64,000 nt of DNA. Origin: Anaerolineae bacterium. GTDB taxonomy: Bacteria; Chloroflexota; Anaerolineae; Aggregatilineales; Phototrophicaceae. The first letter of the stretch is position 1. Each line of letters starts with the position of its first letter. Both the position numbers and the translations under genes were made by a program. Where the stretch lies: NCBI GenBank assembly GCA_022820125.1, contig JAJEGA010000014.1:18567-82566 (forward strand), given 5' to 3'. The notes below the pieces were generated by a model, which ran no database searches, had not been told where the DNA came from, and saw nothing but the letters and a program-made list of their open reading frames with translations. Below are positions 19 through 62,047 of this stretch, one piece after another.

Positions 19-43
19 GGGCGACCCAATGGCTCGCCCCTAC
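19..43. repeat. Partial REP-like arm (GGGCGACCCAATGGCTCGCCCCTAC) of the GTAG/CTAC double-hairpin repeat family
   Basis: Ends in CGCCCCTAC like the right arm of the full copies at 2533-2611, 16009-16078, 18772-18841, 19481-19553 and 38647-38716. No left arm is visible; the window edge is 18 nt away. Confidence 0.45.
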
Positions 44-7633: not shown

Positions 7634-7797
7634 TTGAAGGGCGCGCTGCGTTTCAATTGCCGCGCAAAGCCGCCTGAATGCGCGCCGGCAAAATGCGGCA
7701 GCGGTCCGCGCTGAAATCGAAATGAGCGGACGTCATCGCACCCTGCGCGCCCTTTCCGCTATAATCTCCCCAGGCCCACTCACGAGATGCTGACTTG

Positions 7798-11284: not shown

Positions 11285-11349
11285 CTAGCGATTATACCGC
11301 CCTCCAAACCACGCCTGGTCAATCACCACCCGCTCGACCGTCACCTGCT
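11285..11349 (-). pseudogene. 3' gene remnant of an Mrr_cat paralogue (reads QVTVERVVIDQAWFGGRYNR*)
   Basis: About 46 nt (11304-11349) are nearly identical to 12162-12207, the 3' end of the 190-aa gene. There is no upstream coding continuation. Confidence 0.7.
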
Positions 11350-11427
11350 TCGTCCAAGCACTTGGTCGTCTGGAGGAGATTGTACAATTGTGTTGTCGTC
11401 TTTCAGATTCGCAAAATTAGACAGGAT

Positions 11428-11637
11428 TTACTGGAGGAGATAGATTATCAAAGCGGCCAGCGCGATTTGCGTTCCGATGAACCACTTGATTAATTCGGCT
11501 TTCATTTTATACATATCTGTTCTCAGGTCTGCTTTCAGATCCGCCAAGTCTTCTTTTGTCGCATTGCTCTTGCTGCGCTCTTCCAATGTCGAGAGGCGGC
11601 TCTCGAATCCCAACGAGTCCATATCCGTCACAGCCAT
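11428..11637 (-). CDS. Small coiled-coil protein with C-terminal TM helix (DUF1640-like)
   Basis: 69 aa. LSTLEERSKSNATKEDLADLKADL..ELIKWFIGTQIALAALIIYLLQ. A paralogue lies at 11882-12058. Confidence 0.6.
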   Translation of the reverse strand: MAVTDMDSLGFESRLSTLEERSKSNATKEDLADLKADLRTDMYKMKAELIKWFIGTQIALAALIIYLLQ

Positions 11638-11713
11638 GTCAGATTCTCCTGCCCACCTTGCGCTACGTTACAATTCACACTATATCAAATCCTTAGCATA
11701 CTGTCGAATCACT

Positions 11714-11773
11714 TCACACCCGCTAAACTCTCCCAAACCACGCCCGGTCAATCACCACGCGCTCGACCGTCAC
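11714..11773 (-). pseudogene. Second 3' gene remnant of the Mrr_cat paralogue (reads VTVERVVIDRAWFGRV*)
   Basis: 11733-11773 match 12162-12202 with one or two mismatches. The TCACAC context of the authentic stop is also retained at 11714-11719. Confidence 0.7.
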
Positions 11774-11881
11774 ACAGTCTGGATTCACAGCAATTCAACC
11801 CTGGGGACGGACATACACTTTCTATCGAGCGGAACGCTGGCTTCGTGCGATGCGATTTAGCGGAGGCTCAAAGAAATGGAC

Positions 11882-12058
11882 TTACTGAAGGAGATAGATT
11901 ATCAAGGCAGCCAACGCGATTTGAGTGCCGATAAACCATTTGATCAGATCGGCTTTCAAATTGGACAAGTCTTCTTTAGTCGCTTGACTTGTGCTCCGCT
12001 CTTCCAAAGTGGATAAGCGACTCTCATAATTCAATGCGTCGACTTCAGTCATATTCAT
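11882..12058 (-). CDS. Small coiled-coil/TM protein, paralogue of 11428-11637 (58 aa, below the ORF-track cutoff)
   Basis: Hand translation: MNMTEVDALNYESRLSTLEERSTSQATKEDLSNLKADLIKWFIGTQIALAALIIYLLQ*. The C-terminal 19 residues are identical to the 69-aa paralogue, and there is an 11-codon internal deletion between KADL and KAEL. Confidence 0.6.
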   Translation of the reverse strand: MNMTEVDALNYESRLSTLEERSTSQATKEDLSNLKADLIKWFIGTQIALAALIIYLLQ

Positions 12059-12151
12059 GCCAAGCCCTTAATGTCCGTGTAACTGTTCGTTCCAACGGAC
12101 AGTATACCACAAAAGACATGCGACTGGCGTGACCCGTTCTTGCTAGGAGGC

Positions 12152-12724
12152 TCACACCGCCCCAAACCACGCCCGGTCAATCACCACCCGCTCGACCGTC
12201 ACCTGCTCCGTGCGCAAGCCCAGCTCCAGCTCCTTCAGCTTGCCAATCAACTCCTCGCCATCAATTAGCCGGATCTCCGGCGCGCGGTCGCTGGCCGCCT
12301 TGAGCGCCGCCTCCTGCGTGAAGCCGCCGGTGGTGATCAGCAGCCCTTTATCGGCGCGCCCGACCATGACCCGGCGCCGAAAATCATCGACCTCGGCTGA
12401 GCTGGTGCGCCCGCGCCCGCGGATGCAGCGGAAAGCAACGCGGAAGGTCAAGAAGCCGCCGCCGCCAAAGCTGCCGATGCCCTCAACCGTATCGTTGGCG
12501 CTGCTCAACTCAATCTGCCCCACGCCGTCTTTCTCAAGCAGCTGCAAGATCAGCCGCTGATACGCATCGGCGCTCATCTGCTCCAGCGTATCGGTCACTT
12601 CCTCGCGCCAGCCGGTCAAGCTCTCAATCAATTCCTGCGTGACCGCGCGCGCCTCGCCCGCGTTTTCCGGTGCCAGCGCTGTTGCAACCTCGGTCATCCG
12701 CCTGCCGTCTTCCCCGCTCATCAT
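12152..12724 (-). CDS. Mrr_cat-domain protein with degenerate catalytic motif (no Mrr_N domain)
   Basis: 190 aa. Aligns without gaps to the Mrr C-terminus, but GIDGIG becomes TVEGIG and FQCKRY becomes FRCIRG. Confidence 0.7.
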   Translation of the reverse strand: MMSGEDGRRMTEVATALAPENAGEARAVTQELIESLTGWREEVTDTLEQMSADAYQRLILQLLEKDGVGQIELSSANDTVEGIGSFGGGGFLTFRVAFRCIRGRGRTSSAEVDDFRRRVMVGRADKGLLITTGGFTQEAALKAASDRAPEIRLIDGEELIGKLKELELGLRTEQVTVERVVIDRAWFGAV

Positions 12725-15065: not shown

Positions 15066-15859
15066 TGCCAAAGCTGATCATCACCGCCGATGATTGCGGC
15101 TTGACCGACGCCATTAACCAGAAAGCGCGCGAGCTGCATCAAGACGGTTACATCAGCGCCGCCAGCGTGATGACCAACTACCCGGCGCATCAGCGCGCGC
15201 TGAGACTCTTCCGCGCCTGCCCTGATCTCGATCTCGGCATCCATCTGTCTCTAACCGACGGCCACCCGGTCAGCGATGACGAAGAGCATCATCCGCATTT
15301 GCTAAATGAAGACTTCAGCTTCCGCAACAACCTCAGCCTCTATCTGCGCTCGCATTTCTTCAGGTCCGACGCCGTCCGCTGGATTCGCAACGAACTGGAC
15401 GCGCAGCTGCGCCGCTTCACCGACGCCGCTTTGCAGCCCCGGCACATCTCGACTCATCATCACTTCCATTCGATACCCCTGCTGCGCCGCATCGTGCACG
15501 ACCTGGCAAGCGAATATGGCGTGGACTGGGTGCGCGCTCATGACTTCCGCGCCAATGTCTCCCCGCATAATTACTGGCTGCGGCGGCAGCGCCAGCGCGC
15601 AAACGACGCCTTCACCATGCCTGATTATGTGACGGCGATCCAGGCGCATTTGAAACATTCGGTCGCCGACTTCTGCGCGCGCATCGCCCGCCTGAGCGGC
15701 GTCATCGAAATCGTCGTGCATCCGGCGCCGCGCCATGACCCCGACTTCCCGCCCGATTGGCATTATGGGCTGGCGCCCCGCCGCGCCGAAACCCAGTTCC
15801 TCATTCAAGCCGTCGACCGCCTGCGCGATATGGGAATCGGCAGCGAGCCAATCAGTTGA
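15065..15859 (+). CDS. YdjC/ChbG-family carbohydrate deacetylase
   Basis: MPKLIITADDCGLTDAIN and LGIHLSLTDGHP are YdjC signatures. Confidence 0.75.
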   Translation: MPKLIITADDCGLTDAINQKARELHQDGYISAASVMTNYPAHQRALRLFRACPDLDLGIHLSLTDGHPVSDDEEHHPHLLNEDFSFRNNLSLYLRSHFFRSDAVRWIRNELDAQLRRFTDAALQPRHISTHHHFHSIPLLRRIVHDLASEYGVDWVRAHDFRANVSPHNYWLRRQRQRANDAFTMPDYVTAIQAHLKHSVADFCARIARLSGVIEIVVHPAPRHDPDFPPDWHYGLAPRRAETQFLIQAVDRLRDMGIGSEPIS

Positions 15860-15964
15860 CAGGTCGCCAAGCGCAAGCGTCTCAATTCGTTTTTTGAAAA
15901 AGGAGTAGGCAGAAGGAGCGGAGATTTTCGTCCCTCGCGACCAATCTGCAAGATCGCTGCGGTC

Positions 15965-16138
15965 CTCAGTAAGTCCAATAAAGTAATGCAACAAAATGAA
16001 GGAACGTCGTAGGGGCGACTCTTGAGTCGCCCACCTGTACAATGGCGACATAGTGGGCGAGACAAGTCTCGCCCCTACAGATCTCGAATCAGATTAGCAT
16101 CGCCCTTTTTCGCATTACTTACTTTGTTCTACTTCTGT
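15965..16138. mobile_element. About 174-nt MITE-like element carrying a GTAG...CTAC double hairpin at its core (core 16009-16078)
   Basis: Roughly 94% identical (about 10 mismatches by eye) to 38603-38776 in the same orientation. The flanks are an imperfect inverted repeat (AAGTAATGCAACAAAA vs the reverse complement of TTTTTCGCATTACTT). Confidence 0.7.
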
Positions 16139-16182
16139 GCTTTATGCGCTTTCTTTTTTTTGAATCCGCTCACGGCGCAACT

Positions 16183-16210
16183 GTAGGGGCGTCTGACCCG
16201 CTGTGTCTAC
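16183..16210. repeat. Truncated or degenerate GTAGGGGCG... repeat arm
   Basis: GTAGGGGCGTCTGACCCGCTGTGTCTAC. Only the left-arm signature is present. Confidence 0.35.
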
Positions 16211-16257: not shown

Positions 16258-16286
16258 TTGACAGCGCCAATGCCTTGCCCTACAAT
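16258..16286 (+). promoter_or_regulatory. Consensus sigma-70-type promoter upstream of mutS2 (TTGACA-N17-TACAAT)
   Basis: TTGACA at 16258-16263, a 17-nt spacer and TACAAT at 16281-16286, 60 nt upstream of the ATG at 16346. Confidence 0.6.
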
Positions 16287-18771: not shown

Positions 18772-18841
18772 GTAGGGGCGACTCTTGAGTCGCCCGCCGG
18801 CATCATTGTGGAGTTTTGGGCGATTCAAGAATCGCCCCTAC
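18772..18841. repeat. GTAG...CTAC double-hairpin (REPIN-like) repeat
   Basis: GTAG-GGGCGACTC-TT-GAGTCGCCC ... GGGCGATTC-AA-GAATCGCCC-CTAC, followed by AGAT. Lies between mutS2 and the methyltransferase. Confidence 0.75.
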
Positions 18842-18863: not shown

Positions 18864-19451
18864 ATGACCGAAGACCGCCATGCTCGTTTCAGCGAACGAT
18901 ACGCCAGCGGCGAAACACCCTGGGACAGCGGCATCACCCCGCCGGAAATCGTCGAATTGCTGGCGATTCTGCCGGCGGGAAGCGCGCTTGATCTCGGCTG
19001 CGGCACCGGCACCGTGATCCGTGATTTGCTGAGCCAGGGCTGGCGCGCCGACGGCGTCGACTTCGTGCGTAAAGCGATCGACCTGGCGAGCGCCAAGCTG
19101 GCCGATTTCCATTCTGACAGCTACCGCCTCTTCCGCCATGATGTGACGCGCCTGGACGAATTGCCCGAGCTGCGAAGCGATTACGATCTCATCATTGATA
19201 TTGGCTGCGGGCATACGATCAACGGCGCCGCGGGAATGAACGCTTACGCCCAAGCCATCGCCGAGCGGCTGGCGCCAGGTGGGATCTTCATGCTCTACGC
19301 CAGCCATCCGCGCCCCGATTCCACCGTCGGCTGGGCGCCGGTGCAAGTCGAGCGGGCATTTGGGCGCCGCCTGGATCTCCTGTGGGAACAGCGCAGCCAT
19401 GACCAGGCGATCAGCGCGCCGACCAGCTGGTACAAGCTGCGTAAGCCATAG
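18864..19451 (+). CDS. Class I SAM-dependent methyltransferase (TPMT-like)
   Basis: PWDSG...ALDLGCGTGT motif I. Trimmed to the ATG at 18864, because the TTG-initiated extension runs through the repeat. Confidence 0.75.
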   Translation: MTEDRHARFSERYASGETPWDSGITPPEIVELLAILPAGSALDLGCGTGTVIRDLLSQGWRADGVDFVRKAIDLASAKLADFHSDSYRLFRHDVTRLDELPELRSDYDLIIDIGCGHTINGAAGMNAYAQAIAERLAPGGIFMLYASHPRPDSTVGWAPVQVERAFGRRLDLLWEQRSHDQAISAPTSWYKLRKP

Positions 19452-19480: not shown

Positions 19481-19553
19481 GTAGGGGCGTATCGCCGATA
19501 CGCCCGTTGAATATGACATAAATTTTGCGGGCGTTTCAGCGAAACGCCCCTAC
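19481..19553. repeat. GTAG...CTAC double-hairpin (REPIN-like) repeat
   Basis: GTAG-GGGCGTATC-GCC-GATACGCCC ... GGGCGTTTC-AGC-GAAACGCCC-CTAC, followed by AGAT. Confidence 0.75.
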
Positions 19554-19712
19554 AGATTACGAAATGTGAGGGGAAATTGTTATCTATCAGCACAATTTAA
19601 TTTGATGCGATTGCCTTGGCAAAGCGACCAAGAGTTGTGAATGCATATCTGATGTGGTAACTTCGTGCGATTGCAACTGCGCGCCAGGATGAATCTGTAA
19701 CCGGAATCATAT

Positions 19713-38431: not shown

Positions 38432-38602
38432 GAATCTCCAGCGAAATCAGCTATCCTGATTATACAAGAATTTATTTAGCAACACAAAGTAAATTTCTTA
38501 AGCATTGGGTAACTATGTGGGTGGAGCTCATCTCTTCGCAACGTCAATTTCACGACACAGACATTAGTGATACAAATTCAGAAGCACACTTCGTATACGT
38601 TT

Positions 38603-38776
38603 CTCAGTAAGTGCAATAAAGTAATGCAACATAATGAAGGAACATCGTAGGGGCGACTCTTGAGTCGCCCACATGTACAATGGCGACATAGTGGGCGAGA
38701 CAAGTCTCGCCCCTACAGATCTCGAATCAGATTAGCATCGCCCATTTTCGCATGACTTACTTGCGTTTACTTCTGT
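38603..38776. mobile_element. About 174-nt MITE-like element, second near-identical copy (core double hairpin 38647-38716)
   Basis: Roughly 94% identical to 15965-16138 in the same orientation. Confidence 0.7.
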
Positions 38777-61650: not shown

Positions 61651-61782
61651 AGCCCGCCAGATCTTGCGCAGACGCAGCGTATCCCTGTAATCAAAATAGA
61701 AACGCTCTCTGCTCTCCTTGTGTACGAACATACTGCAAGTAAATATGCAAAATGCGGACCGTGATTCTTGTTGTCGGAATCT

Positions 61783-61853
61783 GTAGAGGCGAGACTAATC
61801 TCGCCCGTATTAGTGACAGATTGCATACGGGCGCCTTGGCGAGACGCCCCTAC
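61783..61853. repeat. GTAG...CTAC repeat, diverged copy within a diverged relative of the 174-nt element
   Basis: GTAGAGGCGAGA-CTAA-TCTCGCCC ... GGGCG..CGCCCCTAC. The flanks GCAAGTAAATATGCAAAATGC and GCTTTTTGCATGACTTGCTTGG resemble the flanks of 15965-16138. Confidence 0.6.
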
Positions 61854-62047
61854 ACGTTTTATGCTTTTTGCATGACTTGCTTGGTTCTATTTCTATGCCC
61901 TCAGTGTTGAAATTCTCTGTTCAAAACTCGGCAAAAGCGCTTGCCGGCGCCATCCGCCAACCTTAAGCAAAACGCAATCTCATTGCCAACAGGCGAAACT
62001 GGCAGCATAATGATTCGCGCCATACTTGCTGGACTGCGAGGCAAACA

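Follow-up and report, generated by a model that had tools for sequence, protein, structure and literature searches.

A 64-kb stretch of bacterial DNA (hereafter the window, meaning all 64,000 nucleotides analysed) carries a family of short, structured repeats that resemble repetitive extragenic palindromic (REP) units, and these repeats are the subject of this report. The window has a G+C content of ~59%, and the proteins it encodes include MutS2, a DinG-exonuclease fusion, pyruvate kinase, and LysM proteins. Relatives of its MutS2 at 76–99% identity carry the label Chloroflexota wherever they are named, and its hairpin variants recur in metagenome-assembled genomes (MAGs) of Anaerolineae and Phototrophicaceae. 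Judged from these sequence comparisons, the host is an Anaerolineae-like Chloroflexota bacterium; as a preliminary description of the window had supposed, it is not a proteobacterium. Each repeat unit is a hairpin with a GTAG tag at its foot, and most units are paired in inverted orientation as doublets. The nine sites are the following:

Positions 19 to 43, minus strand: single REP unit at the window edge, GTAGGGGCGAGCCATTGGGTCGCCC, with one stem mismatch; any partner arm would fall beyond the window.
Positions 2386 to 2454, no strand assigned: degenerate REP doublet, GTAGGGGGTCTCGCTGAGACGCC ... GGGCGTATCACCCAGACCCCCTAC, the outer 12 nt of which still pair; DNA fold −18.3 kcal/mol, z −3.95.
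Positions 2533 to 2611, no strand assigned: REP doublet, GTAG tags outward, stems ACAT/ATGT and ATCA/TGAT, spacer 29 nt.
Positions 16009 to 16078, no strand assigned: REP doublet, stems ACTC/GAGT and AGAC/GTCT, spacer 22 nt; DNA fold −25.3 kcal/mol, z −6.7.
Positions 16183 to 16210, plus strand: lone GTAGGGGCG head without a matching 3' half; the downstream stretch GACCCGCTGTGTCTACGCGCGGC is kept in relatives.
Positions 18772 to 18841, no strand assigned: REP doublet 27 nt past the mutS2 stop codon, stems ACTC/GAGT and ATTC/GAAT.
Positions 19481 to 19553, no strand assigned: REP doublet 3' of a methyltransferase gene, stems TATC/GATA and TTTC/GAAA, with a synteny break 62 nt downstream.
Positions 38647 to 38716, no strand assigned: REP doublet between divergently oriented genes, 99% identical to 16009–16078.
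Positions 61783 to 61853, no strand assigned: REP doublet whose left tag is mutated (5' head GTAGAGGCG) and whose right stem is imperfect; its flanks show a partial likeness to the composite element described below.

The window holds six clean head-out doublets, one degenerate doublet, and two partial units, at the coordinates given in the preliminary description and with every inner stem variant named there; the double-hairpin layout it proposed is accurate. Doublets measure 69–79 nt with their tags outward (n = 7), and their spacers 18–30 nt. In the 12 exact hairpins the GTAG tag stands directly 5' of a 9-bp stem closed by a loop of 2–3 nt, and 12 of the 13 exact heads have such a 9-bp stem, which is perfect in 11 and has a single mismatch in the other. 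The stem foot, GTAG-GGG...CCC-CTAC with three consecutive G-C pairs, is present in all copies except the mutated head at 61783, and the flank CTACAGAT is common to four copies, as had been reported. The copy at 16009–16078, for example, reads GTAGGGGCGACTCTTGAGTCGCCC, a 22-nt spacer, and GGGCGAGACAAGTCTCGCCCCTAC. The two arms of each window doublet differ in their inner stems, so that the doublets are heterodimers. The lone head at 16183–16210 may be an old or decayed unit, since the GACCCGCTGTGTCTACGCGCGGC stretch downstream of it is conserved in relatives.

All nine sites are extragenic, as claimed earlier for every copy: they fall within the 10.4% of the window that lies outside ORF-based gene calls, the remaining 89.6% being called coding. 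An apparent gene overlap of 26 nt at the 18772 copy disappears when the metagenome gene start at 18864 is used. The flanks of all doublets were read for target-site duplications, and no direct repeats were found.

Counts show the family to be strongly over-represented. In the window there are 12 occurrences of GTAGGGGCG-N(5-25)-CGCCC, where dinucleotide-preserving shuffles predict 0.02 (0 of 100 shuffles reached 12), and in these 12 exact hairpins the interval between GTAGGGGCG and CGCCC is N10-11. A tag-plus-stem detector, which requires only GT[AG]G and, directly after it, a stem of 7 bp or more with a G+C foot, found 15 units in the window compared with 0.54 in Markov simulations.

Paired inner-stem changes were analysed in an alignment of 15 hairpins (12 distinct). 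The five outer stem pairs are essentially fixed, and each of the four inner pairs shows double-sided changes; 93.4% of cells are paired, compared with 76.4% after shuffling, and the covariation score is 0.431 versus 0.107 in shuffled alignments (0 of 500 shuffles), with slid controls at or below 0.09. The compensatory pattern foreseen for aligned copies is therefore present in all four inner pairs. The further idea, that the two sides change together under selection on structure, holds only in part: the covariation is real, but it need not stem from stepwise compensatory mutation, because at one orthologous site a whole stem variant has been exchanged for a variant present elsewhere in the genome (see below). 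Inner-stem covariation fits coexisting palindromic subfamilies combined with copy replacement.

When five intact doublets were folded as single-stranded DNA and compared with shuffles, four gave z values of −5.4 to −8.1 and the 61783 copy −2.6; the minimum-energy fold was one long hairpin in three of the five and two hairpins otherwise. Stable, G+C-rich stems, several of them just past stop codons (that of mutS2 by 27 nt, that of the methyltransferase gene by 29 nt), would also be expected of host transcription terminators or attenuators, which selection on RNA structure would maintain at gene ends and which would not be mobile DNA. This explanation is very improbable. The hairpins are followed by CTACAGAT... 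and not by a T-run, and for lack of T-runs the intrinsic terminator reading was rejected. A terminator scan found 6 sites against 5.1 expected; only one of these overlaps with an arm of a REP, and that one is not on the strand of the flanking genes. Moreover, divergent genes flank one copy and others stand upstream of a conserved promoter, an Rfam scan of the window gave 0 matches at the gathering score, and the same 9-nt head is found in about 20 phyla, among the matches listed, and beside transposase genes of the kind described below.

Four relatives were compared with the window: L001 (99.94% nucleotide identity), L207 (97%, on the 4.42-Mb contig ena:ERZ25072384:ctg341754_138x_l), L208 (92%), and L209 (85%). 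In the spacer between ydjC and mutS2, the doublet and the larger repeat that carries it are present in the window and L207 and absent from L208 and L209; the sequence TTGACA-17-TACAAT beside this site is conserved in the window, L207, L208, and L209. In the spacer between mutS2 and the methyltransferase gene, the window has a doublet, L207 a single unit with a different stem (ACCCATTGGGT), and L208 a doublet with one stem swapped, and nothing recognisable was seen in this spacer of L209. The left arm here is GACTC/GAGTC in the window and GAGAC/GTCTC in the 92% relative, with a homologous spacer, and both variants are present elsewhere in the genome; the swap looks like replacement by another family member. 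Such gain, loss, and exchange of REP units at orthologous sites among close relatives argues for recent activity. The window has 0.2 units per kb, and 22 kb of L207 has 0.49 per kb; extrapolated to 4.4 Mb, this would be on the order of a thousand units, a figure that is an extrapolation and not a count.

Several other features of these spacers were noted. The TTGACA-17-TACAAT sequence is a promoter-like site at 16258–16286 (11/12 matches), upstream of mutS2; the block holding it is near-invariant down to the 85% relatives, and the REP-bearing sequence just upstream is not conserved. L207 is missing a 52-nt segment, 16134–16185, and one end of the deletion falls inside the GTAG of the partial unit at 16183.

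Two of the doublets are embedded in a larger composite repeat:

Positions 15960 to 16138, no strand assigned: 179-nt composite repeat, with the doublet 16009–16078 between outer imperfect inverted arms at 15968–15995 and 16106–16133.
Positions 38598 to 38776, no strand assigned: second copy of the 179-nt composite repeat, 93% identical to the first, holding the doublet 38647–38716.

The outer imperfect inverted arms read AGTAAGTCCAATAAAGTAATGC... and ...GCATTACTTACTTTGTTCTACT. The same carrier surrounds a doublet in another Anaerolineae MAG (L003, about 820–990), and a partial likeness to it was seen at window positions 61745–61873. The carrier may represent either a composite unit that is mobile or a palindrome favoured as a target, of the kind Di Nocera et al. 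reported for Anabaena GTAG-15. An element of ~70 nt with inverted ends, two copies of which lie in a 179-nt unit with outer inverted arms of its own, also invites a reading as a classical MITE (miniature inverted-repeat transposable element). It would then derive by deletion from an insertion sequence with a DDE transposase, and its GTAGGGGCG...CGCCCCTAC ends would be terminal inverted repeats. We give this reading next to no credence: no copy has target-site duplications, the ground on which a DDE-type MITE was rejected; single arms occur alone; and the sole protein found recurring beside the repeats across genomes is a Y1/HUH enzyme, not a DDE transposase.

Gene order breaks at window position 19615, 62 nt past the doublet 19481–19553 (L001 3531; L207 13219). 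Beyond this point different continuations are found in the window, in the 99.94% scaffold (together with its 97% relative), in the 92% relative, and in the 85% relative. In L207, an inverted 162-nt copy of the 19481–19553 doublet plus flank lies 2.3 kb away (15467–15628). The break is either REP-associated recombination or an assembly mis-join. The 129-kb metagenome scaffold of the 99.94% strain (ERZ23491379 scaffold_178, L001) terminates at window position 16085, 6 nt past the doublet 16009–16078. Short-read assemblies are probably broken up by such repeats.

A strict doublet pattern in which 23 bases are specified matched at least 119 genome stretches, nearly each from a separate genome, where about 2 would be expected by chance over 596 Gb (our own estimate, for uniform base composition). 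Among the matches listed, the hosts span about 20 phyla, with stretches of 35–73% G+C, and include Chloroflexota, Clostridia and other Bacillota, Actinomycetota, Acidobacteriota, Alpha-, Beta-, and Gammaproteobacteria, Desulfobacterota, Myxococcota, Bdellovibrionota, Bacteroidota, Planctomycetota, Verrucomicrobiota, Armatimonadota, Cyanobacteria, Parcubacteria, and several candidate phyla. In many of these other genomes the arms are exact inverted copies, the classic form of REP doublets forming hairpins (REPINs), whereas the arms differ in the lineage of the window. The GTAGGGGCG doublet sequence is also kept in stretches of 35–40% G+C (L012, L043, L090, L025, L046), for example in Moraxella, Bdellovibrionales, and Dysgonomonas; a G+C-rich doublet that stays unchanged in low-G+C genomes implies that its sequence is constrained by something besides host base composition. 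The pattern further occurs on 111 IMG/VR viral or prophage contigs (L212–L322), which could reflect host DNA in prophage calls or a route of horizontal spread; none of the 111 gave a match to a RAYT profile (see below). Full-text literature matches to the string GTAGGGGCG, among those listed, were eukaryotic primer or promoter papers only.

REPs are mobilised by REP-associated tyrosine transposases (RAYTs, or TnpA-REP), and the preliminary description had proposed such a link for this family. It gains support from other genomes, where GTAGGGGCG hairpins flank RAYT genes or sit inside them. A RAYT ORF was found beside or around doublets in 3 of the 119 stretches: in a gammaproteobacterial sponge symbiont (L019), where doublet arrays flank the RAYT gene on both sides, and at the doublets of an Oscillospiraceae MAG (L032) and a deltaproteobacterial MAG (L006). 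The L019 protein passes the NCBIfam model REP_Tyr_transpos (81.7 bits, cut-off 80) as well as Pfam Y1_Tnp, and the best match in the Protein Data Bank to a 20-member profile of the RAYT family is 4ER8, the E. coli TnpA-REP (E 1.7e-8). Unbiased clustering of all ORFs in the 119 REP-bearing stretches gave no dominant common neighbour, as expected of a trans-acting, single-copy RAYT; the largest clusters were ordinary gene families, and the RAYT cluster had three members only. More than 7,400 RAYT homologues were found at E ≤ 1e-10, many carrying the JGI name 'REP element-mobilizing transposase RayT' and several, among the matches listed, labelled Chloroflexota or Dehalococcoidia. No protein from the 4.42-Mb relative contig was among the best 120 of >7,000 RAYT matches, which says nothing either way. 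Many database contigs that carry a RAYT are only 1–5 kb long.

The association was also examined in reverse, at 80 independent metagenomic RAYT loci picked by protein alone (peptide patterns MPNH.H and DY..GxYF). GTAG hairpins occur inside the gene at 67 loci, within 500 bp at 41, and in either place at 72, with a density of 2.64 per kb inside, 1.21 near, and 0.09 farther off. The heads of these hairpins (n = 238) are mostly GTAGGGGCG (138) or GTAGGGGCA (84), i.e. 222 of 238 are GTAGGGGC[G/A]; on this sequence evidence the head found in the window is the signature REP of this RAYT clade. None of the window's own stem variants was seen beside the 80 RAYT genes.

In-frame REP units lie within RAYT genes, just past the HUH strand, at L123 3265–3353, L006 7709–7777, and L032 6754–6777. 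At the protein level the loop past PNHxHGIIxI often starts with VGAG (GTAGGGGCGGG) and ends with APT, PLQ, or RPY, which are the three frames of CGCCCCTAC (proteins P0001–P0120). In L006 the N-terminal and C-terminal RAYT matches flank the internal doublet 7709–7777 and differ in reading frame. Such units are known here from related loci only and not from the genome of the window, and their novelty was considered and rejected, as they are already a hallmark of TnpA-REP subclass 2.4 (PMC6006769). In two Chloroflexi genomes the RAYT gene stands directly downstream of uvrA (L123 370–3645; L210 5397–9108), a shared position that suggests vertical inheritance; neither has dispersed REPs within the surrounding 6–19 kb.

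We conclude, with a probability of roughly 0.78, that the repeats of the window are non-autonomous REP units of the GTAG superfamily, mostly arranged as head-out doublets, and are moved by a RAYT/TnpA-REP encoded elsewhere in the genome. A 5' GTAG at the foot of a G+C-rich hairpin, inverted doublets, extragenic placement, and the lack of target-site duplications all agree with the REP/REPIN identification first made by eye. The mover would be a single-copy HUH/Y1 tyrosine transposase that, by homology to the E. coli TnpA-REP (4ER8), attaches to the hairpin folded from single-stranded DNA, recognises GTAG at the foot of its stem, and cuts and rejoins the strand. Cutting and rejoining would copy, remove, or exchange units and leave no target-site duplications. 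If the enzyme needs only the tag, the G+C-rich foot (GGGCG/CGCCC), and a paired stem, the inner four pairs are free to differ among coexisting subfamilies as long as they pair. A mechanism of this kind would give a fixed tag and foot, an inner stem that is free but paired, absence of target-site duplications, and survival of copies outside genes. The most likely cognate enzyme, going by sequence, is of subclass 2.4 (Group 4). Some copies may also have acquired a secondary host use, such as protection of transcript 3' ends or protein binding.

Several observations weigh against this conclusion. As the preliminary description had noted, the 64-kb window has no RAYT-like ORF by phmmer with E. coli RayT or by a hidden Markov model built from 20 RAYTs; none was found in 12.7 kb of the 99.94% strain, and Y1_Tnp is not in the stored gene table for 22.4 kb of L207, where no RAYT search was made. 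Three Chloroflexota-like RAYT loci have REPs inside the RAYT gene and none dispersed over the surrounding 6–19 kb, so the presence of a RAYT and a large REP population are not always coupled. The arms in the window are not near-identical, which sets the doublets apart from classic Pseudomonas REPINs with their near-perfect inverted pairs. A single pair of doublets is identical, and that only as part of the larger 179-nt repeat; at these sites the moved unit may be bigger than the doublet. Mobilisation in subclass 2.4 is itself a proposal from homology.

The missing RAYT leads to another explanation, in which the RAYT that spread these REPs has since been lost, and the orphaned copies are now used by the host, for instance to protect transcript 3' ends or to bind proteins, or persist as neutral structured DNA or RNA, changing solely by recombination and gene conversion between copies. 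The lack of a RAYT in the window and in the 12.7 kb searched of L001 would follow directly, and REPtrons, i.e. RAYT genes with their REPs, can be missing from REP-bearing species, as Di Nocera et al. note (PMC3733652). Gene conversion from another copy could account for the stem swap at the orthologous mutS2 site, and the synteny break beside a doublet suggests that the copies are recombination substrates. However, differences in presence or absence, and in single units versus doublets, among genomes of 92–97% identity point to recent gain and loss and not to a frozen relic, most copies are intact (12 of 13 exact heads with the 9-bp stem), and RAYTs of this clade are common in Chloroflexota. 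We therefore regard orphaned REPs as unlikely and favour mobilisation by a RAYT encoded elsewhere in the genome.

GTAG-tagged REPs form a superfamily of 24 families in more than 80 species and 8 phyla, Chloroflexi included (Di Nocera, De Gregorio & Rocco 2013, BMC Genomics 14:522; PMC3733652). That survey describes head-to-head (HH) dimers with tags outward and spacers of 20–100 bp, heterodimers with arms of different stems, subfamilies with 'alternative complementary stem residues', and REP dimers nested in longer palindromes; it also records GTAG-23 in the Chloroflexi species Thermomicrobium roseum, and families in Cyanobacteria and the phyla of the Planctomycetes-Verrucomicrobia-Chlamydiae group. 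The window repeats agree with these accounts in their 5' GTAG at the foot of a stem (6–13 bp in the superfamily), short loop, and extragenic location, and likewise in their HH dimers, heterodimers, complementary-stem subfamilies, and the occurrence of some dimers in longer palindromes. They differ in that the host belongs to an Anaerolineae-like Chloroflexota lineage outside that survey, and in that the copies are dispersed, whereas those of T. roseum are clustered in a few blocks.

Among transposases, Bertels et al. (2017, PMC5581495) found RAYT Group 4 to be common among Cyanobacteria, Chlorobia, and Caldilineae. Quentin et al. (2018, PMC6006769) equate this group with TnpA-REP subclass 2.4 and note its scattered occurrence in many phyla. 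The REPs of this subclass are of the 'canonical long' type, with a stem foot of three G-C pairs after GT[AG]G, and in-frame REP units in tnpA between the HUH and Tyr motifs are unique to it (PMC6006769). The stem foot in the window, and the in-frame REPs in homologues of the RAYTs that adjoin GTAGGGGCG doublets, match this subclass, a placing of the associated RAYTs that rests on published hallmarks and not on a tree with reference sequences. Unlike subclass 2.4 systems as published, the window itself has no RAYT of any subclass.

The repeats also resemble the REPINs of Pseudomonas fluorescens and the bacterial interspersed mosaic elements (BIMEs) of E. coli (Bertels & Rainey 2011; Ton-Hoang 2012; Messing 2012) in being inverted extragenic REP pairs that can fold into one long hairpin. 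REPINs and BIMEs are served by a single-copy RAYT that recognises the hairpin and its GTAG, and the profile of the RAYTs associated with the present repeats best matches, among solved structures, 4ER8 from E. coli. The stem sequence and host phylum differ, and so does the RAYT subclass: 2.2 (Group 2) in E. coli and 2.5 (Group 3) in Pseudomonas, compared with 2.4 (Group 4) as suggested here. The preliminary proposal of an undescribed REPIN lineage is not supported, since GTAG REPs were already reported from Chloroflexi in the survey cited above, Group 4 RAYTs from Caldilineae (PMC5581495), and subclass 2.4 from many phyla (PMC6006769). The family is a new host-lineage example within the GTAG-REP superfamily and not a new kind of element.

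One further repeat was noted in the window, at 11304–12283, where three tandem units of ~429 nt (82–96% identical) adjoin Mrr-type restriction endonuclease genes; this region differs from that of the 97% relative.

For annotation, sites of this kind should be labelled REP/REPIN-like repeats, and not terminators, small RNAs, or unknown motifs. For metagenomics, Chloroflexota MAGs are likely to show contig breaks, mis-joins, or genuine rearrangements at these repeats, because the 99.94% scaffold ends 6 nt past one doublet and departs in gene order 62 nt past another. A wider idea, speculative and to our minds doubtful, is that the GTAGGGGCG REP, with its almost invariant nine-base head, and its subclass-2.4 RAYT constitute one system shared across bacteria, from about 20 phyla and genomes of 35–73% G+C to the 111 viral contigs. 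In this Anaerolineae lineage it would have grown to about a thousand units, with heterodimers in a 180-nt palindromic carrier that mark strain-level synteny breakpoints; if true, it would be a major, uncharted driver of rearrangement and assembly fragmentation in uncultured Chloroflexota. The close genome pairs found here would let REP insertion and loss be dated. A dense, apparently active REP population in uncultured Anaerolineae extends REP-RAYT systems beyond the Proteobacteria, the focus of nearly all work on them.

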